In this document: positions 1,311-63,352 of the stretch, one piece after another | How the letters are laid out: each line of letters starts with the position of its first letter | Position numbering within the stretch: position 1 is the first letter of the stretch | Source of the DNA: Pirellulales bacterium | GTDB taxonomy: Bacteria > Planctomycetota > Planctomycetia > Pirellulales > JBFWUW01 | Direction of reading: 5' to 3' | Assembly (NCBI GenBank): GCA_050247075.1 | Contig: JBFWUW010000037.1 | Coordinates: 1-64,000 of the forward strand | Length of the DNA: 64,000 nucleotides | Notes under the pieces: model-generated | What the model was told of the DNA's origin: nothing | The model's input: only the letters and a program-made list of their open reading frames with translations | Database searches by the model: none | Position numbers and translations under genes: made by a program

Positions 1311-2365
1311 CGGACGATGATATCATCGACCACTTGCGTGTCTCCTTCGCGGATCACAAAGAACTGCACCTTCTTCTTCTTGCCTTCGACCAACACCAAC
1401 TTGCGAGCGCTGGCTGGCTTGGCCTCATGCACGGTGGCGTCTTCCAGCGCTTCTTTGAGCTTTTCCAGGCCTTTTGCATCGTTATCGCCCAACTTGATCG
1501 CGGCAGCCAAGCCCTTGGCCCTTCTACTCGTCAAGTCGCTGACCGTGCTGATGTCGCCCGCCAAAACGGCCTCGACCACGCGCTGCACCACAAACTCGGG
1601 CGACTCTTCGTCAAACTTCTTGCCATTGGCCGTCTTGACACTAGATCCGCCTGAAGCTGTCGCTGCACCGCCGGCTGCGGGAGCGCCACCAGGAGCAGCA
1701 GCCGGTGCAGCACCAGGAGCAGCGCCCGGAGCGGCGACCGGGGGAGCACCCGGTACATCACCCGCAGGAGCGCCTGCTACGGCACCCGGAGCAGCCCCAG
1801 CGGGAGCGCCCGCAACAGCACCCGGTGGAGTGCCAGCAACAGCGCCGGGTACCGCGCCGGCGGGAGTACCGGGTACATCGCCCGGAGGAGTGCCTGGTAC
1901 AGCGCCCGGTACCGCACCTGCGGGAGCGCCCGGAATGGCACCCGGTGGAGTGCCAGGAACAGCGCCCGGAACGGTACCTGCGGGAGCACCGGGGATTGAA
2001 CCCGGAACAGCGCCTGGTGCGGCGCCTGCGGGAGCTCCTGGGATTGAACCTGGAGCAGCACCCGCGGGAGCGCCTGGGACTGAGCCCGGAACAGCGCCAG
2101 GTGCGGCACCCGCGGGAGCGCCTGGGATTGAGCCGGGAGCCGCGCCCGGTGCCGTACTGGCTGGCGCGGCCGCGGGAGCCGACGCACTGCCAGCCGCCGG
2201 CTGAGTGCTGCTTGGTGCCGCGGCGGGAGCCGAGGAAGGGGCATTCTGCGCCACGGTGGCGGGGCTGTCTGATGAAGCAGCGGGCGGGCTGCTATCGGAG
2301 CCGCCGCAACCAGACATCGAGCATACAGCCAGCAGGCAGGCACAGGTCCAAACGGTTCGCGACAT
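1307..2365 (-). CDS. secreted lipoprotein with long Pro/Ala/Gly tandem-repeat region and a C-terminal globular domain
   Basis: An internal ATG at 2365 gives the N-terminus MSRTVWTCACLLAVCSMSGCGG, a signal peptide plus lipobox-like SGC. It is followed by ~170 aa of (A/V/I)PG(A/S)xPG repeats. The 5' extension in the track is unlikely to be real. Confidence 0.6.
   Translation of the reverse strand: MSRTVWTCACLLAVCSMSGCGGSDSSPPAASSDSPATVAQNAPSSAPAAAPSSTQPAAGSASAPAAAPASTAPGAAPGSIPGAPAGAAPGAVPGSVPGAPAGAAPGSIPGAPAGAAPGAVPGSIPGAPAGTVPGAVPGTPPGAIPGAPAGAVPGAVPGTPPGDVPGTPAGAVPGAVAGTPPGAVAGAPAGAAPGAVAGAPAGDVPGAPPVAAPGAAPGAAPAAAPGGAPAAGGAATASGGSSVKTANGKKFDEESPEFVVQRVVEAVLAGDISTVSDLTSRRAKGLAAAIKLGDNDAKGLEKLKEALEDATVHEAKPASARKLVLVEGKKKKVQFFVIREGDTQVVDDIIVR
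1630..2152 (-). repeat. imperfect in-frame tandem repeats (~36-48 nt units) encoding APGAAPGAVPGS(I/V)PG-type repeats
   Basis: Reiterated GCGCCCGGNGC / GGAGC(G/A)CCTGG blocks are visible at the nucleotide level. The same periodicity appears in the antisense shadow ORF 1317..2204. Confidence 0.7.
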
Positions 2366-15283: not shown

Positions 15284-15443
15284 GCCCCTGTCGCTTAATA
15301 TGGTACACTTACCAAACTAAGCTTAATCATGTCAAGGAAATTCCTGGCGAATTCTTGGAAGGGGCCGTCAGCGGAGAAGCGATCAGCCGTTAGCTTTCTT
15401 AAGGCAGACGATTCGACGTTGGAAACGCCGCCTAGGGACAGCG

Positions 15444-17230: not shown

Positions 17231-17809
17231 ATGAGAGAAGTTACGGAAATTCTAAATCGGCTCCAGGCGGGGGGTAATGCGGAAGCCCGCGAGCTATTTG
17301 AACTGATCTACGACGAATTGCGCAAGCTCGCGGCGGCCCGGATCGAGCGGGAACCGGCCGGACAAACCTTGCAAGCAACTGCCCTTGTGCATGAGGCTTA
17401 CTTGCGGCTGGTCGATCAAGAGATTCCGCAATCTTGGGATTCTCGCGGGCATTTTTTCGCGGCTGCCGCCGAGGCGATGCGGAGAATCCTGGTCGAAAGC
17501 GCCCGCCGGCGAAAGAGCCTGAAACGAGGCGGCCACCTGACTCCGCGCGAATACAACGATTCACAAATCGCCGCTCCAGAAGAAGCGGGTGATGTAGAAG
17601 CCCTGCATGAGGCGCTGAATGAATTCGGCCAGGTTGATCCTCGCGCCTGCGAGTTGGTCAAGCTGCGCTGTTTTGCTGGCATGACGTTGGAACAGGCTGC
17701 CGAAGTGCTGGGCATTTCGCGCAGAACAGCCGCCCGCTTGTGGACTTATGCCCGCGCCTGGCTTCACCAGCGCCTGGGGCTTGGCTTGGGGCAAGAAGAC
17801 TTACCGTGA
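17231..17809 (+). CDS. ECF-type RNA polymerase sigma factor (TIGR02999/Sig70_X6-like, kinase-associated group)
   Basis: MREVTEILNRLQAGGNAEARELFELIYDELRKLAAARI... matches the ECF family that in Planctomycetes and Verrucomicrobia sits next to Ser/Thr kinases. The sigma-4 region AGMTLEQAAEVLGISRRTAARLW is present. ATG 17231 is preferred over the track start 17066, giving 192 aa. Confidence 0.85.
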   Translation: MREVTEILNRLQAGGNAEARELFELIYDELRKLAAARIEREPAGQTLQATALVHEAYLRLVDQEIPQSWDSRGHFFAAAAEAMRRILVESARRRKSLKRGGHLTPREYNDSQIAAPEEAGDVEALHEALNEFGQVDPRACELVKLRCFAGMTLEQAAEVLGISRRTAARLWTYARAWLHQRLGLGLGQEDLP

Positions 17810-23909: not shown

Positions 23910-23980
23910 TGATGGTGCGGGAGTCGAACCCGCGACTTCCAGTTGAAAACTGGTGCTCTACCCACTGAGCTAACCGGTCG
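23910..23980 (-). tRNA. tRNA-like gene with canonical D and T arms, but an acceptor stem that does not pair as read and a short anticodon loop (isotype unresolved; TTC/Glu if the loop is TTTTCAA)
   Basis: The reverse complement gives GACCGGT-TA-GCTC-AGTGGGTA-GAGC-A-CCAG-TTTTCAA-CTGG-AAGTC-GCGGG-TTCGACT-CCCGC-ACCATCA. The D-arm and T-arm (GGTTCGACTCC) are textbook. The 3' acceptor strand ACCATCA does not pair with the 5' strand GACCGGT; ACCGGTC would be expected. Confidence 0.5.
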
Positions 23981-25163: not shown

Positions 25164-25270
25164 CTCCCTCTCCCTCTGGGAGAGGGCCGGGGTGAGGGTT
25201 TGGTTGATGGCGGCTATTTCGGCACATCTCCCTCTCCCCAACCCTCTCCCGGAGTACCGGGAGAGGGAGC
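25164..25270. repeat. REP-like composite palindromic intergenic repeat, copy 1
   Basis: ctccctctccctctgggagaggg ... ggggtgagggtt ... aaccctctcccggagtaccgggagagggag: nested inverted repeats in the gap between convergent pfkB-like and sulfatase genes. The same element recurs at 63245-63352. Confidence 0.6.
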
Positions 25271-25337
25271 CTGAAGCAGAAGTTATTTCGGTACCCAACC
25301 ATACGATTTCAATTGTCGCCGGCATATGCGCGGGCAG

Positions 25338-26906: not shown

Positions 26907-28088
26907 TTACAAGCGCTCCGGCACGTATTCGTGGTCGCGCTTGCGAAGGACCGTGGCGGAGATGACACGGTCAGGCTCCGTGGTTTTGCGGGTTTCGTCA
27001 TCCATCCGTTTCAGCTTGGCCAGCACATCCAGCCCGTCGATAATACGGCCAAACACGGTATGCTTGCCATTCAAGCCAAGCGCCGGTCGAAAACTCAGAA
27101 AGAACTGAGAGCCGCCGGTGTCCTTGCCGGCATGGGCCATGCTGATGCTGCCGCGAAAATGCTCGCGATGGTCCTCGCGGCCGCATTCACACGCGATTTT
27201 GTAGCCAGGACCGCCGGTGCTGTTGCCGAGTGGATCGCCACCTTGCGCGACGAACGATGATTCCACGCGAAAGAACGTCGTATCGTTGTAGTATTTGTCC
27301 TCCACCAGACGGACAAAGTTGGCCACGGTGTTGGGGGCCTGGTCCTCAAAGAGTTCCAGTGTCATGTCTCCCTGGGTCGTGTGGAGCAAGACTCGCGGAA
27401 GATCGCCCGCCTCGGCATCGGCCGCGCGGAACTCTAGTTCGCGCTGCCAGGCCTTGGTCACGGCGGCGGCTTGGCTCAAATCGCGCAACGCGGCTTCGCC
27501 CAAAACACTTTGCTCGGCGGGCAACTTCATCGTCTCGGCATCGCGCTTCAGTTTTTCGGCCGCCAGCTTGAGGTATTTTTCAGCCCGTTCTCCGTCGGCC
27601 AATGCAAAGGCAACCCGCCCCGCCAGCTCGTAGATTCCCTCGTCGAGCGGCTCGCGCGTCTCCAACGGTTCCAGCAGTTCCTGGGCAAGCTCGTAGTCGT
27701 CCTTGAAGGCGGCGGCAGCGGCCGAGAACATCATGAACTTGTCGAGATCATCCCGCCGACTGGCGCCATTGTGACTAAGGGCCTTGGCCGCCTCGGTCAT
27801 CTGAACGACCATTTCGTCGCCGGCGGCCAGTTTTTCATCGTACTCGCGCCGCAGCCCGTCCCGAGCAGACTCTGACGCCGTCAAGAAGGCCAACTGCAGT
27901 TGGTGCAGTTCGAGAACAAGGGACTTCCATTCGGCATACAGACGGTCGAACCGGGCCTCTTGCGCCGCGGCGGACAAACTTGCCGCGGGATCGGCTGCCT
28001 TAACCGTCAAGCCGCCCCATGCGGCGGCCAATAGCAGGCAGCCAGCCAGGGGGCACCATATCCACCGCGACTTTGTTGGTCTATGCAT
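26907..28088 (-). CDS. secreted cyclophilin-type peptidyl-prolyl cis-trans isomerase with N-terminal helical (TPR/coiled-coil-like) domain
   Basis: C-terminal cyclophilin motifs FFRVESSFVAQGGDPLGNSTGGPGYKI and SMAHAGKDTGGSQFFLSF. Signal peptide present. Confidence 0.85.
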   Translation of the reverse strand: MHRPTKSRWIWCPLAGCLLLAAAWGGLTVKAADPAASLSAAAQEARFDRLYAEWKSLVLELHQLQLAFLTASESARDGLRREYDEKLAAGDEMVVQMTEAAKALSHNGASRRDDLDKFMMFSAAAAAFKDDYELAQELLEPLETREPLDEGIYELAGRVAFALADGERAEKYLKLAAEKLKRDAETMKLPAEQSVLGEAALRDLSQAAAVTKAWQRELEFRAADAEAGDLPRVLLHTTQGDMTLELFEDQAPNTVANFVRLVEDKYYNDTTFFRVESSFVAQGGDPLGNSTGGPGYKIACECGREDHREHFRGSISMAHAGKDTGGSQFFLSFRPALGLNGKHTVFGRIIDGLDVLAKLKRMDDETRKTTEPDRVISATVLRKRDHEYVPERL

Positions 28089-28155: not shown

Positions 28156-29388
28156 TCACTCCGGCTTCTCTGCGGCTCCCTCGTCGGCAACCTTTTTCGG
28201 CACGTATTTGTGGTCGCGCTTGCGAAGCACGGTAGCCGTTTCGATGACGTCAGGCTTGGGGCCGCCAGGGAATTGAGGATTAACGCGTTGCAAGTCCTTG
28301 AGGACTTCCATGCCCTGAATAACGCGGCCAAAAGCCGTGTGCTTGCCGTCGAGGTGGCCGGTGGGGCGGAAGGTCAAGAAGAACTGCGATCCGCCGGTGT
28401 CCTTGCCGGCATGGGCCATGCTCAAGGTGCCGCGGAAGTGCTTGCGATAGTCGTCCCGGTAGCATTCACACGCAATGTGATAACCGGGGCCTCCCGTGCC
28501 GTTGCCTTCAGGGTCTCCCCCTTGAGCCATGAAGCCGGGCAGAACACGATGGAACGGCAACCCGTCGTAGAACTTCTTTTCGACGAGGTTGATAAAGTTC
28601 GCCACGCTGTTGGGTGCCTGGTTTTCAAACAGCTCGATGGTGATATCGCCCTTGCTGGTAGCCAGTTTGACGCGAGGCAGGTCATCGGCTTTGGCCTCGG
28701 CCGCTCGGATATCTTGCTCTTTTGCCCATTCCTCGCGAAACTCGGGCAGCAGGGCCAGCGTGACCTTGCCGTCTTCCTCCAGTGCCTTGAGTTCCTTGGC
28801 TTGCTTCAACTCCGATTCAGCCAGGTCCAAGTCTTCCATATTGAAAGCCGCGGCACCAATCGCCTGGTGGATCGCGGGATTCTCAAAGCCTCCCTTCACC
28901 AGCAATTGCCCCAAACGGACAGCCTCTTCGTAATCGTCCCCTTCGATCGACCGGCCAATCCTCTCCGCCAAGAACTGCTCCGCCTTTTTGTTAGCCTTGG
29001 GATCTTTGAGGTACAGCTTTTCGATCTCTGGCTGCAAGTCAACCAACAAGGCAGCCCGTTCATTGATCGCCGCGGCCAGCCCTTGGTACTTCTGGACAAT
29101 CGCCGGCCGGTCAGCCTCCTTGGCCTTGCGGAACTCGCCTTCTAGCTTGCCGATCTCGCCCGCGATCTCCAGGGCCTCGTCGTAGATTTTCTCAAAGTCG
29201 GCGATCGAAGGAGGCACCACCTCGCCCTTTGGCTTTGCAGCGGCCGGTTTGGCCGGGGCGGGTTTCTTGGCGGGCTGCTGCTCGCCTTCAGCGGCGTGGG
29301 CGGACACAAACGGGCTGAAACCAACGACATAGCACAAGCCACACGTCAAAGTAAATTTTCGAACGGCGGTCAACATAATTGCACCCAA
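28156..29388 (-). CDS. secreted cyclophilin-type PPIase paralog with Lys/Ala-rich N-terminal region
   Basis: FHRVLPGFMAQGGDPEGNGTGGPGYHI and SMAHAGKDTGGSQFFLTF. Tandem paralog of 26907..28088. Confidence 0.85.
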   Translation of the reverse strand: MGAIMLTAVRKFTLTCGLCYVVGFSPFVSAHAAEGEQQPAKKPAPAKPAAAKPKGEVVPPSIADFEKIYDEALEIAGEIGKLEGEFRKAKEADRPAIVQKYQGLAAAINERAALLVDLQPEIEKLYLKDPKANKKAEQFLAERIGRSIEGDDYEEAVRLGQLLVKGGFENPAIHQAIGAAAFNMEDLDLAESELKQAKELKALEEDGKVTLALLPEFREEWAKEQDIRAAEAKADDLPRVKLATSKGDITIELFENQAPNSVANFINLVEKKFYDGLPFHRVLPGFMAQGGDPEGNGTGGPGYHIACECYRDDYRKHFRGTLSMAHAGKDTGGSQFFLTFRPTGHLDGKHTAFGRVIQGMEVLKDLQRVNPQFPGGPKPDVIETATVLRKRDHKYVPKKVADEGAAEKPE

Positions 29389-29525
29389 GAATGGTTGGTC
29401 GAAGGACGTACTTGCATTGCAAAACAGAGTCGGACGAGCGCGGCGGGGCGCAGCCCAAGACCGAGCTTTAGCGTACCATACACCTGTTACGATTTGCAGG
29501 GGCTGTCGGTTCGCTCCTCCGTTTT

Positions 29526-29574
29526 GTCGGAGGCGTTTCCAATGCCGAAAACGTAGGAGGCGTTTCTAACGCCG
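29526..29574 (+). promoter_or_regulatory. two tandem copies of a (T/G)AGGAGG + GGCGTTTC(C/T)AA(T/C)GCC palindrome element directly upstream of the rsmD-like gene
   Basis: gtcggaggcgtttccaatgccga (29526-48) and gtaggaggcgtttctaacgccga (29552-74). They are flanked by ccgttttg...cgaaaacg complementary arms. Related copies lie at 43203 and 53416. Confidence 0.5.
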
Positions 29575-29581
29575 ATGCTTC

Positions 29582-41889: not shown

Positions 41890-42008
41890 AGGCGAAAGGC
41901 GAAAGGATGAAGTCTGATAGCCGACGGCTGACTGCTTCTCCGCTGACAGCCTTTTCCTTTTCAGTTGGCCAAGTCAGGCCGACGGGAATGCCCTGTCGTG
42001 AAGCGCGG

Positions 42009-43172
42009 CTACTTGGCTAACTCGACGATGCGCAAATTGCGAAACGACAAATTGGTGGTTGGATCGTGTCCTTGTATCGACAGTGTGCCAGCTTCCACCC
42101 GCAGCCCCTTGCGAGGGTTCGCGTCGGGTTTGCGGGTGTCGGTCCAGTCACTCACCGGAAAGCCGTTCACCCATCCGGCCATGTGCGGACCGTCGGCGAC
42201 CAGCGTCATGGCGAACCACTCGTGGTCGTTTGAGACGACCCGCCGCGCATCTTGTCGTCGATAGAACCCGCCGGTTCCGCAATCGAGCGGTTTGTTGCGG
42301 TCGCCGTCCTTGTAGCCATTTTGAATTTGAAACTCGTAACCCAGCTTGAAGTCGCCAGGAATCGAGCGAAAGAAAATTCCTGAGTTGAGATGTTCGCCAT
42401 GTGAGATGGCTTCAAGTTGCAAGACAAAATCGCCGTAACTCTCCTCGCTCTCCAGCTGGCCATCGCCGTTTTCCACATGCAGATATCCCTCGGATGTGAC
42501 CGAGTAGACACTGGCCTTGCCGGCCAGCTCCTTCCAGCCCGACAAGTCCTTGCCGTTAAAGATGCTCCGCAGCCCCAAAGGCTTGAGCTTAATGTTACGG
42601 AACTCGACCGGCCCGGCATTGTATTGCAGGCCAATATGCCCGCGGGCCAACGGGTGGGGATCGGTGTAGTCCAAGACGGTCTCGCCATCTAGCTTGACGG
42701 TGATTTGCGCCCCCTGGGCAGCAACTTCGTAGGAGTGCCATTGCGTCAGATCGTGCTGGCCGCCCGACCTTTGCCGTCCGACAAAACTGCCGGTGGGAAA
42801 AGGGCTAATGGCCGGCGCGGCAATGTTTAGCTCGTAGCAGTCCTTTGCCGGGTCGGTGGGTATCGGCGGAGTCCGCAAGAAGATACCACTGTTGGTTTCG
42901 GCCGATGCGCGAAAGTCGGCCTTAAAGACGTAATCGGCGAACTGGCTAGTGGTGTTGAGCAGCCCCTTGGTTCCTTCGCTGACGGTGATCGCGCCGTCGG
43001 CCACGTTCCAATTGGCATCGGTGGCGGCCTTCCAACCAAACGTGCTCTCGCCGTCGAATAGCAAAATCCAACCCTTGGCCATCTCGTCCGGCGTTAGCGT
43101 ATTTGGTTCCGCGGAAAACCCGCTAGCCGCCACTGAACCCAACACGGCACATATTAAAAACCGCTGCAACAT
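42009..43172 (-). CDS. secreted protein with two DUF1080 (3-keto-disaccharide hydrolase / LamG-like jellyroll) domains
   Basis: Internal start MLQRFLICAVLGSVAASGFSAEP (signal peptide). GWILLFDGESTFGWK...FADYVFKADFR is repeated as GWKELAGKASVY...YGDFVLQLE. Confidence 0.7.
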   Translation of the reverse strand: MLQRFLICAVLGSVAASGFSAEPNTLTPDEMAKGWILLFDGESTFGWKAATDANWNVADGAITVSEGTKGLLNTTSQFADYVFKADFRASAETNSGIFLRTPPIPTDPAKDCYELNIAAPAISPFPTGSFVGRQRSGGQHDLTQWHSYEVAAQGAQITVKLDGETVLDYTDPHPLARGHIGLQYNAGPVEFRNIKLKPLGLRSIFNGKDLSGWKELAGKASVYSVTSEGYLHVENGDGQLESEESYGDFVLQLEAISHGEHLNSGIFFRSIPGDFKLGYEFQIQNGYKDGDRNKPLDCGTGGFYRRQDARRVVSNDHEWFAMTLVADGPHMAGWVNGFPVSDWTDTRKPDANPRKGLRVEAGTLSIQGHDPTTNLSFRNLRIVELAK

Positions 43173-43202
43173 GCGAACCACCTGTGGTTGGTTGAACCTG
43201 AA

Positions 43203-43225
43203 TCGGCGTTGGAAACGCCTCCTAC
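43203..43225 (-). promoter_or_regulatory. copy of the GTAGGAGG + GGCGTTTCCAACGCC palindrome element, ~30-45 nt upstream of the DUF1080 gene start
   Basis: The minus strand reads gagttgtaggaggcgtttccaacgccgatt. The 15-bp palindrome is perfect here. Confidence 0.45.
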
Positions 43226-43231
43226 AACTCT

Positions 43232-43765
43232 TCATTCGACGCTCGTCACTCGACACTCGGCAGTTCCCCCCGGTTGCCATGTCGATCGGATCTCCAAGTA
43301 TACTTCCCCAATGAGGCCTCCGGGGAGTTGTTCGCGGCCATATCGGCTAGGGGCCGCCGCTCCAGGTTCCACCCGCGGTAGTTCGACCATAAAAACCAAT
43401 TCGTTGCGATCGGCTAGCAGCGGCGTGAGGTGGAACTCGGCTGGCGGGGGAAGAAAACCGGCCGTCCCCAGTGATTGGCCGTTGAGCGACACCAGGGCGG
43501 CGGGATCGACGCCGTTGATTTTCAGCCAGACTTGTTCGTGGTCTTCCAACCCGGTCGGCAAGTTGAAATGCCGGCGGAATCGCACGCGGCCGCGAAAATC
43601 GGTCCCTATCGCCGCGCCCCAATCGGCGGGCGGGCGGTACTCGGCGGCAGGTGGCAACTCGCCCGGTTCGGCCTCCACCCGACCGTCCGCGCGGCGCACC
43701 AATCTGGCCAGCGGCTCGCAGGCCCAAGGCCCACGCAAGCGAATACGGTGTGGATAGATCGGCAT
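43232..43765 (-). CDS. hypothetical protein (beta-sandwich, weakly GH2 N-terminal sugar-binding-domain-like)
   Basis: MPIYPHRIRLRGPWACEP...WLKINGVDPAALVSLNGQSLG. Coding-like codon bias. No firm family assignment. Confidence 0.35.
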   Translation of the reverse strand: MPIYPHRIRLRGPWACEPLARLVRRADGRVEAEPGELPPAAEYRPPADWGAAIGTDFRGRVRFRRHFNLPTGLEDHEQVWLKINGVDPAALVSLNGQSLGTAGFLPPPAEFHLTPLLADRNELVFMVELPRVEPGAAAPSRYGREQLPGGLIGEVYLEIRSTWQPGGTAECRVTSVE

Positions 43766-43855
43766 GGCGGGAGACTCGGCATGTGCCTCCTGGAAGTGAT
43801 AAATCAGGAAGCTAGGACGAGTGTAAGCCTTGCGAGCGCCCAACGCAATTTGCCG

Positions 43856-52254: not shown

Positions 52255-53337
52255 CTACGGTTGCGGCAGAACTTCTGCCGCGGGCTGGGCCAGGTTCTTG
52301 GCGATGCCGGCCAGGTGCGCATCGCTATCTTGCAACATACGGGCAGCTTCTTCTAGAAATGCCGCGGCACGTTGCCGCTGGCCATCGAAGTACAGCTCCA
52401 AGCCAACCAGCAAGATCAGATCACTGCTGTCGGGTTGTTTGTCGGCTGCTTCCGCCAGCGATTCCAGGTGCGACTGTTTGGCGATTTTGAGGTCGCCATA
52501 AAGTTCCGCCAGATCCAGGGCGGCCTCGGCCATGTTAGGTTCCAGCTTCAGCCCGCGTTTGAAGGCCGTGGCGGCAATGGTGTACTCACCCTGGGCGACC
52601 ATCGCCTGGCCCTGCCGAAACCAGGTTTCCGGGACGTCGGGCGCGGCCTCGGATGCGTTCTTGTAGCGCTGGTTCGCCTGGCGAAACTCTTGCTTGACGA
52701 AATACTTGTCGCCGAGATTGATCCACCGCCAGGCCCGACTGACCGACTCAGGATTCGAGACACGCACCTTGGGCCTGCCTGCCGGTTTGTCTCGCGGTAG
52801 CGCCGCTTGGGGCAGGTTGATTACATTCACCTGGGGCGGCGGCGGATTGACACCCAGCCCCTCGGGGTTCCACAACCCTTGCAGATTCGGTCCCCATAGT
52901 TCATTGGCCGAATAGATCGCCGGACGGCCAAAGTAATACGAATAATTGGAATAGCCAAAAGGATAGCCCGCGCCGATACCGTAAGGATAGCCGTAACCGT
53001 ACCCGCCGTAATACGGTACAGGTCCGATCGTTCCGAAAAAGGCCCCATAGCCAGGCCCGCCATAATAGCCCGGTCCGCTACCGTAATAGCCGGTGCCGGA
53101 CGAATAATAGCCACTGTTGCCGCCGCTGTAGTACAGGCCGCCAAACCTGCGCCCGTTATTGGGGAGAAAATCGGCGTACCGGCGGGACGACGGATCGTGA
53201 ACCTCGGCCTGGCTGTAGCCCGGCACGATCTGGTCGCCCAACGTGCGGCGTCCGCGCTGGGCGGCAGCTTCGCGCGTTATGGCACCGCTAACCGCTACCA
53301 CAAATAACGCCAACAGCAAGCGACTGGCAAGCGACAT
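52255..53337 (-). CDS. secreted protein with Gly/Tyr-rich low-complexity region and C-terminal TPR-like domain
   Basis: Start MSLASRLLLALFVVAVSGAITREAAAQ (signal). ..GGLYYSGGNSGYYSSGTGYYGSGPGYYGGPGYGAFFG..YYGGYGYGYPYGIGAGYPFGYSNYSYYFG.. C-terminal helical repeats. Confidence 0.5.
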   Translation of the reverse strand: MSLASRLLLALFVVAVSGAITREAAAQRGRRTLGDQIVPGYSQAEVHDPSSRRYADFLPNNGRRFGGLYYSGGNSGYYSSGTGYYGSGPGYYGGPGYGAFFGTIGPVPYYGGYGYGYPYGIGAGYPFGYSNYSYYFGRPAIYSANELWGPNLQGLWNPEGLGVNPPPPQVNVINLPQAALPRDKPAGRPKVRVSNPESVSRAWRWINLGDKYFVKQEFRQANQRYKNASEAAPDVPETWFRQGQAMVAQGEYTIAATAFKRGLKLEPNMAEAALDLAELYGDLKIAKQSHLESLAEAADKQPDSSDLILLVGLELYFDGQRQRAAAFLEEAARMLQDSDAHLAGIAKNLAQPAAEVLPQP

Positions 53338-53415
53338 GGCAAAACCCTCCATCTCCGGTTCCGGCCGAGAAATGCTCCAGGTCTTATTATCACCTGAATC
53401 GGGCCATCCGGCAAA

Positions 53416-53474
53416 TCTTGTAGCAGGCGATTTCTTGTAGGAGGCGATTTCTTGTAGGAGGCGATTCCATCGCC
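53416..53474 (+). repeat. three tandem 17-nt repeats tcttgtag(c/g)aggcgatt ending in the palindrome GGCGATTCCATCGCC (variant of the GTAGGAGG-palindrome element)
   Basis: atcttgtagcaggcgatt-tcttgtaggaggcgatt-tcttgtaggaggcgatt-ccatcgcc, upstream of the GY-rich protein gene but written on the opposite strand. Confidence 0.7.
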
Positions 53475-53665
53475 GACAAGCCATGTACTGCCTGGACAGC
53501 GCAATGCTCGCCTGTTGGCCGCTGTAATCGGCCCGCTGCGACTGTTGCGTGGAAATCAGGCTTACGTGGGCTGAAGCCCACGCCACGGTCGCCTTCCGCG
53601 GGCATGCCAAATAAACGCGGGAGAGCGCCATTAGCGACGCTCCCCCGCTTCATACGCCACGACTG

Positions 53666-53866
53666 CTATTGAGCGCAGGCGCACCCAACGCATGCGCATA
53701 CGTCACAGGTGCAGAACAGGCCGTTGCAATCGGGGCAGTGGCATTCCACGCAGCCGCAACAGGTACTGGCCCGCGGGGCCGATGGCGTTGGCCTGGCATA
53801 CGACAGGGCAGCCATCGACACGACAACCGCTGCCAACAGCAGCGCGAACTTCGAGAGACGCTTCAT
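53666..53866 (-). CDS. small secreted cysteine-rich peptide (66 aa; 13 Cys in a 42-aa mature part)
   Basis: MKRLSKFALLLAAVVVSMAALSYA|RPTPSAPRASTCCGCVECHCPDCNGLFCTCDVCACVGCACAQ. Signal peptide, AGGA 8 nt upstream, GC3-rich coding bias. Confidence 0.5.
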   Translation of the reverse strand: MKRLSKFALLLAAVVVSMAALSYARPTPSAPRASTCCGCVECHCPDCNGLFCTCDVCACVGCACAQ

Positions 53867-53933
53867 GGAAGAATCCTTTCAGGCAAACTGGTTGTGAAAA
53901 AATAGAAACGAAACGACGGGCAGCCCCGTGGTT

Positions 53934-54365
53934 TCATTTCAACCAGATGCAGAAAAGCGCCAGCAATTTCGGACCAGCTCGCGAAGGTCGTTCCTCGGCC
54001 CGATCGAAATACTCGGCGGAAGAGAATGCGGAAAGGCTAGCCGCCGGAAAAACAGCCCAGCCCGCCAACTGCCGTTTGACGGCGGACAAGTCGAATAGTT
54101 CTCGCACGATGGGAGCCAGCGGAGGGGTGTGCTGGCAACAACAGCAAGTCCGGTCCAACAGTGCCGCGCCCCTGGCTGGCTGTTTCTTGGCGCAACAAGC
54201 ATGTTTCGGGCGGGCAGCATCCCCGGCCATGGAATGCGAACAGCAAGCCCGCTCGGGGCCGGCCCGCCTTGCACAACAGCACGGCCTAGCCACCGCCGCG
54301 ATCGGATTGACCGCCACGGCCAGCAACGTAATAAGAGCGACGATGGATCGAAGCGCTTTCATCAC
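53934..54365 (-). CDS. small secreted cysteine-rich protein with CC/CCC/CCCC clusters (C-terminal extent uncertain)
   Basis: MMKALRSIVALITLLAVAVNPIAAVA|RPCCCARRAGPERACCSHSMAGDAARPKHACCAKKQPARGAALLDRTCCCCQH... Signal peptide and the same A|RP junction as the neighbour. Confidence 0.45.
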   Translation of the reverse strand: MMKALRSIVALITLLAVAVNPIAAVARPCCCARRAGPERACCSHSMAGDAARPKHACCAKKQPARGAALLDRTCCCCQHTPPLAPIVRELFDLSAVKRQLAGWAVFPAASLSAFSSAEYFDRAEERPSRAGPKLLALFCIWLK

Positions 54366-54560
54366 ATTTGCATCGTATGAAGTTTGGCGCGGGCAAGCAA
54401 CTTTGATTCGCCGGTACTAGACCGAAGGCGATGCTATTACCGCTTTCACAAAGGTTCATCCACTCCACGAACCTCTATAGAATTCTAGCGAGCGCCCGTC
54501 GATTCCAGATTGGCCGTTTTGACGGGGCGGCCGCGACCGAGGTCCGTGCCCGGAATTGTC

Positions 54561-63244: not shown

Positions 63245-63352
63245 TCCAGGCTCCCTCTCCCGGTACTCCGGGAGAGGGTTGGGGTGAGGGCTATGTGGCG
63301 AAAGACCGTCCATCCACAACCCTCACTCGGCCCTTTCTCCGAGGGTGAGGGT
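63245..63352. repeat. REP-like composite palindromic intergenic repeat, copy 2 (inverted relative to copy 1)
   Basis: ctccctctcccggtactccgggagagggttggggtgaggg ... aaccctcactcggccctttctccgagggtgagggtt. It lies between the SPFH gene stop (63366) and the NADK-like start (63220). Confidence 0.6.

Follow-up and report, generated by a model that had tools for sequence, protein, structure and literature searches.

The 23-base copies dispersed along this stretch of DNA most probably (we put the chance at about 80%) form one family of GTAG-tagged repetitive extragenic palindromes (REPs) in an uncultured member of the Pirellulales, of the kind that is spread by a domesticated transposase (RAYT, REP-associated tyrosine transposase). 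The motif is then an ordinary REP, not a gene-specific operator or a ribosome-binding device. An earlier note on the same DNA had listed a small MITE or REP family among its suggestions. The REP half of that suggestion is borne out by the GTAG head, the perfect palindrome, the intergenic positions and the presence of the same 23-mer beside RAYT genes in other genomes. The MITE half is rejected, as there are no terminal inverted repeats and no target duplication, and the unit is just 23 nt long. The analysis covered the window, that is, the whole stretch of 64,000 nucleotides, together with a 1.9-kb extension beyond its end.

The repeat unit and its genomic sites

The motif GTAGGAGGCGNTTCNANCGCC has five matches in the window at up to three mismatches. 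Dinucleotide-preserving shuffles of the window gave an expectation of 0.16 ± 0.37, and none of 100 shuffles reached five. The repeat described in the earlier note is therefore real, and its sequences and coordinates were correct. The four occurrences counted there in 64 kb also stand, and a fifth, degenerate one (15413–15435) had been missed. With a sixth copy in the extension (Table 1), the local density is six full copies per 65.9 kb, and three truncated duplicates of the 5′ half occur besides. REP families usually have a genome-wide copy number above 100.

Table 1. Full and partial REP copies in the window and its extension, numbered from the first base of the window
Feature	Position	Strand	Basis and remarks
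Degenerate singleton REP CTAGGCGGCGTTTCCAACGTCGA	15413..15435	-	3-mismatch match; hairpin kept with a G.T pair
Degenerate REP GTCGGAGGCGTTTCCAATGCCGA	29526..29548	+	2-mismatch match; GTAG to GTCG, one stem G.T; first unit of the dimer
Intact REP GTAGGAGGCGTTTCTAACGCCGA	29553..29575	+	Exact pattern match; second unit of a direct (head-to-tail) dimer
Intact singleton REP GTAGGAGGCGTTTCCAACGCCGA	43203..43225	-	Exact match
Two truncated 17-nt tandem REP 5′ halves with 4-nt flank, TCTTGTAGCAGGCGATT and TCTTGTAGGAGGCGATT	53416..53453	+	Direct reading of the sequence
Intact REP GTAGGAGGCGATTCCATCGCCGA, GGCGAT/ATCGCC stem subtype	53454..53476	+	Exact match
Sixth REP copy, GGCGAT/ATCGCC subtype	Window-equivalent 64499-64521 (L038 1384)	+	About 500 nt past the window end

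Units are 23–25 nt long and are laid out as (TT)GTAG-GA-[6-bp stem, 3-nt loop]-GA(N). The stem is a perfect 6 bp and the loop 3 nt, with the consensus GGCG[T/A]T-TCY-A[A/T]CGCC, and the family pattern is GTAGGAGGCG(T/A)TTCCA(A/T)CGCCGA. Every copy keeps the order GTAG, GA, stem, loop, stem, GA(N). The unit thus falls within the 20–40 nt expected of a REP with a stem-loop-forming palindrome, and an unpaired GT[AG]G, the test for a GTAG tag, stands at the palindrome's 5′ foot. The GTAG is exact in four of the six full copies and carries a single substitution in the other two (GTCG, CTAG). Of three partial copies counted for the window, one keeps it, as does the partial copy of L038, the locus that bears the sixth copy.

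All five loci (six copies) are intergenic by the gene calls of the source assembly or of Logan contigs. Since about 12% of the DNA in the three source contigs is intergenic by gene calls, the probability of this by chance would be about 0.12^5. The copies are arranged as two singletons, one direct dimer and two copies with tandem 5′-half duplicates, and no inverted REP pair was found in the ~66 kb of window plus extension. The dimer sits in the divergent spacer between PPIase(-) and RsmD(+) (29377–29581 by gene calls), which makes at least one of the five loci promoter-side. Its units had been described as 26 nt apart; they start 27 nt apart and are separated by a 4-nt gap. At the two loci with duplicated 5′ halves, the break falls in, or just past, the hairpin loop. 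It is in the loop for the 17-nt units at 53416–53449, which read TCTTGTAG(C/G)AGGCGATT; a 5′-partial tandem duplicate at L038 1407–1391 precedes the sixth copy in the same way.

Positions relative to genes are mixed, and the description of the copies as lying upstream of unrelated genes was half right. Two copies follow the stop codon of the preceding gene, in sense orientation. The copy at 43203 is 7 nt past the stop of the ORF 43232–43843(-) and about 30 nt before the DUF1080 ATG (~43172), a start backed by a signal-peptide start (MLQRFLICAVLG) and a Pfam match; the periodicity of GC by codon position disappears over 43070–43250. For the degenerate copy at 15413, the preceding gene encodes 504 aa and its stop (15444) is 9 nt away; the start of a BlaI-like gene (15283) follows after about 130 nt. 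Two further loci carry copies antisense to the adjacent gene: the copy at 53454 lies 117 nt upstream of a TPR gene, whose start at 53337 is backed by a gene call and a signal peptide, and the sixth copy is antisense to its own neighbour. Tabulating distance and orientation to start codons over the copies of the window and L038, a check proposed earlier, gave no consistent pattern. The gene labels proposed earlier were confirmed as Cons_hypoth95 (RsmD family) and 3keto-disac_hyd (DUF1080). Maximal ORFs at 42009–43280 and 52255–53631 pass through REP copies.

Hairpin folding and compensated stem changes

Folded as DNA or as RNA, all six copies form a 6-bp stem with a 3-nt loop and leave the head GTAGGA unpaired. 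Minimum energies for the copy at 29553 are -6.2 kcal/mol in DNA (z -2.9) and -7.7 kcal/mol in RNA, and for the copy at 53454 they are -6.0 and -9.9 kcal/mol, respectively. The hairpin of the first dimer unit is weaker in DNA (-3.0 kcal/mol, z -0.5), and its G.U pair is retained in RNA. Across copies, RNA folds range from -5.9 to -9.9 kcal/mol, with modest single-copy z values of -0.4 to -2.7. A nested hairpin had been proposed for the dimer from complementary framing arms. Such arms exist, but they are only 6 nt long (CGTTTT/AAAACG). To the minimum-energy fold of the DNA they contribute a weak element of 5 bp, and to that of the RNA nothing. In the latter, CCTCCG (29514–29519) pairs instead with the CGGAGG head of the first copy.

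For covariation, copies were sampled solely by a GTAGGA head and a GA tail at fixed distance, from the window and from loci bearing such REPs. Stems are perfect in 26 of the 30 copies picked in this way, and their sequences are of several different kinds. Among the 13 distinct sequences, 96.2% of cells are paired and double changes occur in four of the six pairs; none of 500 shuffles reached the covariation score, and slid registers drop to 20–47% paired. Related copies swap the whole stem (GGCGTT, GCGGTT, GCGGCT, GGGGCT) with pairing kept, and the subtype of GTAGGAGGCGATTCCATCGCCGA is a compensated T-A to A-T swap. What is constrained across related copies is the GTAGGAG head, the loop region and the CGA tail; variation is confined to some four GC-rich positions of the stem. 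Conservation is highest in the asymmetric GTAGGA head.

The sequences following the copies (GATGCTT, GATTCAG, GACAAGC, GAATCGT) contain no T-run, and the terminator scan made no call at REP copies in any of the four window loci; a Rho-independent terminator, which would have a T-run directly after the hairpin, was accordingly rejected. Rfam 15 at gathering score gave no REP match, its sole match in the window being tRNA-like (23910–23979), and no prediction from the tRNA, promoter, terminator and Rfam scans of the window overlaps a REP copy. A CRISPR repeat (no array, no regular spacers) and an integron attC (wrong size and core) were also considered and rejected.

RAYT genes, relatives and known REP families

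A pattern scan of genome contigs for the motif returned at least 18 stretches among the matches listed. About ten of those listed are single chance matches within genes of unrelated taxa; the informative ones come from two low-GC MAGs and one Pseudomonadales MAG. The identical 23-mer is thus present in 37%-GC MAGs, in a Pseudomonadales MAG and in a 61%-GC planctomycete, and the GTAGGAG head also recurs in the REPs of the Pseudomonadales and low-GC MAGs. In the MAG DAIRCK01, the exact 23-mer GTAGGAGGCGTTTCTAACGCCGA adjoins the 3′ end of a RAYT gene (P0001). The product resembles E. coli RayT (tblastn 1.5e-8) and bears HxH and YxxNPV motifs. Against NF047646 REP_Tyr_transpos it reaches 122.6 bits, above the cutoff of 80, and it stays under the IS200 cutoff. 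A RAYT 71% identical to it (P0003) holds the same REP in its 3′ flank, translated as VGGVSNAD. GTAGGAGCGGCTTTTAGCCGCGAC and GTAGGAGGGGCTTCCAGCCCCGAT stand beside the RAYTs of two other loci (L022 and L023), and sister REPs beside related RAYT genes differ solely by compensated stem changes. RAYT gene calls in other MAGs run on through REP arrays.

No RAYT gene was found in the window and its 1.9-kb extension by tblastn or by profile HMM with all filters off. Protein searches with the DAIRCK01 RAYT and with the RAYT profile retrieved thousands of RAYTs, mostly proteobacterial, and none of the retrieved homologues could be assigned to the source genome. High-GC candidates picked by amino-acid composition (P0069, P0067, P0068 and the closer P0004/P0005) proved to be true REPtrons. 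Their GTAG hairpins are different ones, as in the flanks of the high-GC RAYTs in L034, L035 and L044, and they were rejected as the planctomycete's RAYT.

The family appears lineage-specific when judged by presence and absence at orthologous sites, not by positional conservation. A relative at 57% identity (L037) shares the RsmD/PPIase-PPIase synteny and retains a TTAGCGTACCATA...GCAGGGGC block in the spacer. The REP itself is absent from that syntenic rsmD/PPIase spacer, contrary to the conservation in related genomes on which a functional element had been expected to depend. Ten further Pirellulales loci (62 kb) from relatives at ~50% identity, found by searching metagenome contigs with the PPIase neighbour, hold no REP copies, and 2.9 million viral contigs gave no match to the motif.

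GTAG-tagged REPs, as the accessible parts of Di Nocera, De Gregorio & Rocco 2013 (PMC3733652) describe them, resemble the present unit in the 5′ GTAG, a GC-rich stem within the usual 6–9 bp, a 2–3 nt loop and some G.T pairs, as well as in sub-families with complementary changes and in extragenic singletons, dimers and clusters. For the GTAG-1 and GTAG-2 REPs, those parts give a spacer of 2 nt and a tail of 3 nt; in our copies, likewise, a dinucleotide between GTAG and stem is unpaired and the untagged end carries a short conserved motif. The P. putida GTAG-1 REP peptides given there (..PLLQ.., ..RSY) correspond, on a codon-level reading that we infer from them, to the reverse-strand product of the GTAGGAG head. 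The present case is unlike these REPs in its host, an uncultured Pirellulales MAG, and in its sole dimer being head-to-tail, whereas direct dimers are described there as absent or under-represented. The stem GGCGTT does not occur in the accessible text and supplements of PMC3733652. Within the same phylum, Rhodopirellula baltica (Planctomycetes) has GTAG-20 and GTAG-21 REPs, according to the same accessible parts. They are alike in the GTAG tag and in several coexisting tyrosine-transposase genes, but their sequences differ, since the peptides SRIRQEF and RSVVLHR listed there are impossible from GTAGGAGGCGTTTCCAACGCC in six frames.

Corneloup et al. 2021 (PMC8266576) describe Group 3 REPs as short perfect palindromes. 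Examples are the S. maltophilia REPSm, of 23 nt with a 3-nt loop, and the Marinomonas REPMb, with a 5-bp stem two bases from GTAG, which its TnpA-REP cleaves at CT or CA (PMC8266576). Group 3 TnpA-REP cuts single-stranded hairpins 5′ or 3′ of the REP, and GTAG is comparable to the guide sequence of IS200/IS605 elements (PMC8266576). The RAYTs beside the identical 23-mer resemble Group 3 REPtrons in passing the NF047646 equivalog cutoff. Unlike at Group 3 cleavage sites, no CT or CA lies at a consistent fixed offset among the six copies. The IS200/IS605 subterminal hairpins themselves share the hairpin, the 5′ guide tetranucleotide and an HUH/Y1 enzyme acting on single-stranded DNA (PMC8266576). 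They differ from the isolated 23-nt modules seen here, which have no transposase gene between paired ends, and the enzymes linked to the 23-mer score as RAYTs, under the IS200 cutoff. REPINs (Bertels & Rainey 2011, PMC3116915) are built of the same kind of REP. In the Pseudomonadales MAG, the exact 23-mer and an inverted partner have their first residues 71 bp apart, the same spacing as that of the GI REPINs in SBW25 (PMC3116915). The copies of the window and its extension differ from REPINs and BIMEs in lacking the inverted doublet that defines those arrangements.

Mechanism, alternatives and significance

By analogy with characterised REPtrons, a RAYT (TnpA-REP, HUH/Y1 type) would recognise the REP as a folded single-stranded DNA hairpin. 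The 5′ GTAG would act as an unpaired 'guide' tetranucleotide that helps to choose where, close by, the DNA is cleaved. New intergenic copies would arise when single-stranded DNA, at a replication fork for instance, is nicked and the strand transferred, and they would then decay through mutation. Any influence on adjacent genes would be a by-product of where a copy landed, as with an RNA hairpin 7–9 nt past two stops. We infer a cognate RAYT, present or past, in the source genome as the agent that mobilises the copies. Several observations count against this reading: no RAYT gene turned up in the window and its extension, GTAG is mutated in two of the six copies, inverted (REPIN/BIME-type) doublets, the usual replicative form, are missing, and the rsmD/PPIase locus is promoter-side, while published REPs favour sites downstream of genes.

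It is possible, if on the unlikely side, that the RAYT has been lost or inactivated in this lineage and that the copies are inert fossils in slow decay. This would agree with the lack of a RAYT in ~66 kb, with the head mutations and G.T stem pairs in two of the six copies, and with the occurrence of singletons rather than inverted doublets, singlets being the decaying class in P. fluorescens (PMC3116915). Some REP-bearing species are also reported without REPtrons in the accessible parts of PMC3733652. However, four of the six copies are intact with perfect stems, and the GGCGAT/ATCGCC subtype is shared by the copies at 53454 and L038 1384, two separate loci, which suggests that a variant was propagated rather than that decay was independent. 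Moreover, 66 kb is only about 1% of a typical Pirellulales genome, so a single-copy RAYT would be expected to be missing from it. Because GTAG is mutated in two of the six copies, the family may still be decaying or orphaned. A Group-3-type REP/RAYT system acquired across phyla, and propagating unusually as singletons, direct dimers and 5′-half tandem duplications instead of inverted REPIN doublets, is distinctly unlikely. With head, loop region and tail constrained and so few stem positions free, the same 23-mer could arise independently.

The remaining explanations give the motif a function at its site. A hairpin selected for a transcript role, such as 3′-end protection, operon punctuation or translation, with dispersal reflecting function and not mobility, would account for the two sense copies just past stop codons and for the two copies that accept G.T (G.U) pairs, and it agrees with the stable RNA folds; mRNA-stabilising and terminator-like roles have been proposed for REPs in the accessible literature (PMC3733652). 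It is nevertheless very unlikely, given the two antisense copies, the modest RNA z values, the lack of any T-run, terminator-like copy or Rfam match, and an unpaired GTAG head and GA tail that are conserved equally with the stem, a pattern that fits recognition by a protein or of single-stranded DNA and not a simple RNA hairpin. Improbable to a still higher degree is the regulon operator suggested earlier, in which a dimeric helix-turn-helix regulator would bind the 15-bp dyad GGCGnTTCCAnCGCC in duplex DNA. The dyad has the size and symmetry for such a protein, two loci can be counted as promoter-side spacers, and a promoter-like match at 53414–53386 (minus) adjoins the 53416–53476 cluster. 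Against this, both arms vary by compensation, down to exchange of whole stems, and the asymmetric head is better conserved than the dyad. The element is also missing at the orthologous rsmD promoter, where another block is conserved, and its copies are placed anywhere from directly past a stop codon to over 100 nt ahead of a start. Finally, the identical sequence stands beside transposase-like genes in unrelated genomes.

Scarcely credible is an element that presents or sequesters a Shine–Dalgarno sequence, again an earlier suggestion, with AGGAGG as a ribosome-binding site whose access the adjacent hairpin sets. The AGGAGG is perfect, at 29553 it precedes the called rsmD start by 21 nt, and the upstream CCTCCG can pair with the head of the first copy. 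Yet the spacings from AGGAGG to the next start are ~21 (or 75 if ATG 29636 is used), 45, ~125 and >100 nt, never the 5–10 nt of a Shine–Dalgarno sequence. No fold places AGGAGG within the hairpin, at two loci the copies run antisense to the neighbouring gene, two copies follow stops, and the GTAGGAG head recurs in the REPs of Pseudomonadales and low-GC MAGs. Since distance and orientation to start codons are inconsistent, AGGAGG is best read as part of the conserved GTAGGAG head of the REP.

The significance of the REP reading is mostly practical. With it, an AGGAGG-plus-dyad motif is not mistaken in annotation for an operator, a riboswitch-like leader or a ribosome-binding site, and the copies explain spurious N-terminal ORF extensions and odd repeat peptides. 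The reading also extends the short list of REP families known from the PVC group by one from the Pirellulales, and the GTAGGAG...CGA frame of Pseudomonas-type REPs recurs far beyond the Proteobacteria. If acquisition across phyla were true, it would speak against the view of REPIN-RAYT systems as almost strictly vertically inherited. Should a cognate RAYT be present in the source genome, this would offer a usable non-proteobacterial model for the co-evolution of REPs and RAYTs.

Copies of the repeat and their genomic setting

A short repeat recurs in the window as a real, non-random feature. The sequences quoted in the earlier note were all confirmed, at the coordinates given, when the window was read directly, and a pattern search with GTAGGAGGCGNTTCNANCGCC, allowing up to three mismatches, returned five sites. 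Dinucleotide-preserving shuffles gave an expectation of 0.16 ± 0.37 matches, and none of 100 shuffles reached five. Without its head, the dyad is much less distinctive in the window (5 matches vs 1.16 expected), and the specific signal is therefore the combination of head and dyad. Aligned copies give the consensus unit (TT)GTAGGAG-GCG(T/A)T-TCY-A(A/T)CGC-CGA. The host is a Pirellulales planctomycete of 61% GC. Its gene products include PSCyt/PSD, DUF1501 and DUF1080 domains, and their best-named homologues belong to Pirellulales.

The window is contiguous over 64 kb, and MAG GCA_050184935.1 covers it in at least three contigs. One of these, contig 018, extends 1.9 kb beyond the window end (stretch L038) and holds a sixth full copy.

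Positions of repeat copies and other features (REP matches: GTAGGAGGCGNTTCNANCGCC search, at most three mismatches)
Feature	Position	Strand	Context
REP match, locus D	15415-15435 (locus 15413-15435)	-	9 nt past stop of 504-aa gene, sense; BlaI-like gene about 130 nt further on
REP match, locus A	29526-29546	+	205-nt divergent spacer, cyclophilin PPIase (-) / RsmD-family gene (+)
REP match, locus A	29553-29573	+	same spacer
REP match, locus B	43205-43225 (locus 43203-43225)	-	7 nt past stop of ORF 43232-43843 (-), sense to both neighbours; DUF1080 gene ATG about 30 nt further on
Two truncated 17-nt units, TCTTGTAG(C/G)AGGCGATT, locus C	53416-53453	+	ahead of full copy at 53454
REP match, locus C	53454-53474 (locus 53416-53476)	+	117 nt upstream of TPR gene (start 53337), antisense; downstream of terminator-like hairpin
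Sixth full copy, GTAGGAGGCGATTCCATCGCCGA, locus E	64499-64521, past window end (L038 1384-1362, -)	+	contig 018; 177 nt upstream of Band_7 gene, antisense
Terminator-like hairpin	53648-53617	-	strong, 14-bp stem, 10 GC pairs, then GTTTATTTGG; between 66-aa ORF call and TPR gene
ORF	53692-54420	+	no Pfam match; uncalled in NCBI assembly
42-nt repeat	15357-15398, 41916-41957		81% identical, inverted
71-nt repeat	25203-25273, 63247-63317		87% identical, inverted, 38 kb apart
tRNA-like sequence	23910-23979	-	47.6 bits on Rfam tRNA; uncalled by ARAGORN
12-nt periodicity run	1653-2180		29 registers reported
Cyclophilin-type PPIase paralogues	26907-28088, 28156-29376		tandem
Block TTAGCGTACCATA...(10 nt)...GCAGGGGC	29470-29510 (L037 830-870)		rsmD spacer
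GCA_050184935.1 contig 108	1-17715		break at 17715 not near REP copy
GCA_050184935.1 contig 128	to about 33749
GCA_050184935.1 contig 018	from about 33761

Gene placement was based on gene calls of the source contigs (JBFWZW010000108, 128 and 018 of GCA_050184935.1; Logan runs SRR27751815 and SRR27751816), Pfam matches, and N-terminal signal peptides. All copies lie outside genes. Since gene calls leave only ~12% of the three source contigs intergenic, the chance of five independent loci all being intergenic is about 2.5e-5. The earlier note had asked for distance and orientation relative to start codons; across the five loci, neither is fixed. Terminator scans detected no T-run after any copy, and the copies have no match in Rfam.

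The 5' half of the repeat, with a few flanking bases, is tandemly duplicated at two sites: as three 17-nt units in locus C, and as two 23-nt units in L038 (1407-1391), where the partial duplicate GTGATTGTAGGAGGCGATTCCAT precedes the sixth copy. Both duplications are of the GGCGAT stem subtype and break within the hairpin loop or shortly after it. They may have arisen by slippage at the hairpin, or by aberrant nicking or rejoining.

The window carries two other small repeat families. The 42-nt repeat reads ..GCCGTCAGCGGAGAAGC.GTCAGCCG.., and each copy lies between genes, at a gene 3' end; 15 nt separate the first from a degenerate REP copy. The 71-nt repeat, CCCTCTCCCCAACCCTCTCCCGGAGTACCGGGAGAGGGAGCC, has a hairpin of its own (CTCTCCCGG/CCGGGAGAG), and a similar motif, GGGAGAGGGTTGGGG, adjoins a chance match in Caulobacter contig L001. 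The tRNA-like sequence, in which acceptor 3' strand ACCATCA pairs at 3/7 positions with 5' strand GACCGGT, may be a disrupted or pseudo-tRNA. In one frame, the periodic run encodes Ala/Gly/Pro/Thr-rich low-complexity sequence (..APGTAPAGAPG..), and gene calls there differ between assemblies.

At the rsmD spacer, the closest full-length relative is locus L037, which has the same RsmD/PPIase-PPIase arrangement and a PPIase 57% identical. The spacers share the TTAGCGTACCATA...GCAGGGGC block, and the L037 spacer lacks the REP, contrary to any positional conservation. The REP dimer thus looks like an insertion between this block and rsmD. Ten more Pirellulales loci (62 kb) also contained no REP. 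This block, kept upstream of rsmD in a relative with no more than 57% protein identity, is a stronger candidate than the REPs for a promoter or regulatory element of rsmD or the PPIase gene. Segments of the PPIase paralogues are 77–78% identical in DNA, and L037 shares their duplication.

Hairpin structure and covariation

Every copy folds, as DNA or RNA, into a 6-bp stem (GGCGTT/AACGCC) with a 3-nt loop, leaving the GTAGGA head and GA(N) tail unpaired. Predicted energies of intact copies are -6.0 to -6.2 kcal/mol as DNA (z about -3) and -7.7 to -9.9 kcal/mol as RNA. In two degenerate copies (DNA -3.0 and -4.7, RNA -5.9 and -7.3 kcal/mol), a G.T/G.U pair preserves the hairpin. The compensated swap GGCGAT/ATCGCC is seen at 53454 and in the L038 copy. 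The longer flanking arms described previously amount to CGTTTT/AAAACG, and form no stable predicted feature in DNA or RNA folds.

To guard against circularity, units for covariation analysis were chosen from the window and from loci with these REPs solely by GTAGGA and GA at a fixed distance. Perfect 6-bp stems, of several different sequences, occur in 26/30 units. Among 13 distinct sequences, 96.2% of cells are paired, vs 73% in shuffles, and at four of the six stem pairs both partners have changed. Covariation scores 0.64 vs 0.22; 0/500 shuffles reach 0.64, and pairing falls to 20–47% when the register is slid. Sequence itself is conserved at the head, loop region, and tail. This is the pattern that would be expected of a hairpin with single-stranded flanks read by a protein.

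Related repeats and transposases in other genomes

Among the matches listed in a pattern scan of genome contigs, ~10 are isolated ones within genes of unrelated taxa; a pattern with 18 specified bases would produce such matches by chance in 596 Gb. Eight more fall in two low-GC (34–42%) MAGs, DAIRCK01 and JBNAVN01, and one in a Pseudomonadales MAG; 2.9 million viral contigs contained none. In the low-GC MAGs, the exact window 23-mer is paired, GTAG ends inward, with GTAGGAGCGGTTTCYAACCGCGA, which matches it in head, loop, and tail and differs by a stem swapped through compensated changes. In the Pseudomonadales MAG, the 23-mer and GTAGGAGCGGCTTACAGCCGCGAA form an inverted pair with 71 bp between first residues, the spacing reported for GI REPINs (inverted REP pairs) of P. 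fluorescens SBW25. An identical 23-mer across phyla is weakly suggestive of cross-phylum transfer, as the REP frame leaves only ~4 GC-rich stem positions variable.

Some of these repeats accompany REP-associated tyrosine transposases (RAYTs). In tblastn searches, E. coli RayT matched low-GC locus L015 (7534-7911, 1.5e-8) and had no match in the window; a profile HMM run unfiltered likewise detected no RAYT in the window or its extension. The L015 ORF (protein P0001, PF01797) has HxH and YxxNPV motifs, a sister-REP tandem array upstream, and the exact window 23-mer at its 3' end; L015 7206-7324 is masked as N. Relatives of P0001 are named ‘REP-associated tyrosine transposase’ by their sources. 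P0001 itself passes NCBIfam NF047646 with 122.6 bits (cutoff 80), whereas the IS200 model gives it 33.7 bits, below the cutoff of 55. P0003, from another MAG, is 71% identical, and its 3' read-through translates both REP types (SRLETAPT, VGGVSNAD). Two more distant RAYTs, P0005 and P0004, have GTAGGAGCGGCTTTTAGCCGCGAC and GTAGGAGGGGCTTCCAGCCCCGAT at their flanks. Gene calls for low-GC RAYTs run through REP arrays (L015 7155-8000; P0001-P0005), giving artefactual C-terminal repeats (SRLETAPTGGE several times, VGGVSNAD).

Other GTAG-tagged hairpins flank three high-GC RAYTs (L034, L035, L044), some in 130-nt periodic arrays. In L044 (GCA_023269675.1; 9485-10502), one such array precedes the RAYT, with GTAGGGACGGCTCCCCGAGCCGTCC alternating with inverted GTAGGGACGTTTCCCCGAAACGTCC; this is a textbook BIME-like REPtron.

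Identity and origin of the element

By its sequence, the element fits the definition of a GTAG-tagged REP, which bears out one of three suggestions in the earlier note, a MITE/REP family, as a REP. GTAG REPs are described from >80 species, Planctomycetes among them (GTAG-20 and GTAG-21 of R. baltica), with 6–9 bp stems, 2–3 nt loops, some G.T pairs, and sub-families that arise by complementary changes (Di Nocera et al., PMC3733652), all features of the window REP. It also shares the unpaired dinucleotide after GTAG and the 3-nt tail of GTAG-1 and GTAG-2 (PMC3733652). The other two suggestions fared less well. A duplex operator is disfavoured by a stem kept in structure and a head, loop region, and tail kept in sequence, which is hairpin-type conservation, and the apparent Shine-Dalgarno AGGAGG arises by accident from the conserved GTAGGAG head.

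TnpA-REP binds the single-stranded hairpin and cleaves at an adjacent CT or CA; GTAG plays a part similar to that of the guide tetranucleotide in IS200/IS605 ends, and short perfect palindromes characterise Group 3 REPs, one of which is set 2 nt from GTAG (Corneloup et al., PMC8266576). Given this binding and cleavage, and the Group 3 palindromes, the most likely mechanism by analogy is that a RAYT would generate and spread the hairpin module, with single copies then decaying. An orphaned, decaying REP family is a live alternative, favoured by GTAG heads mutated in 2/6 copies. The window and extension contain no inverted doublets, the hallmark of REPINs. The main uses of the repeat are in keeping annotation clean and in giving the PVC group an example of Pseudomonas-type (GTAGGAG...CGA) REPs.
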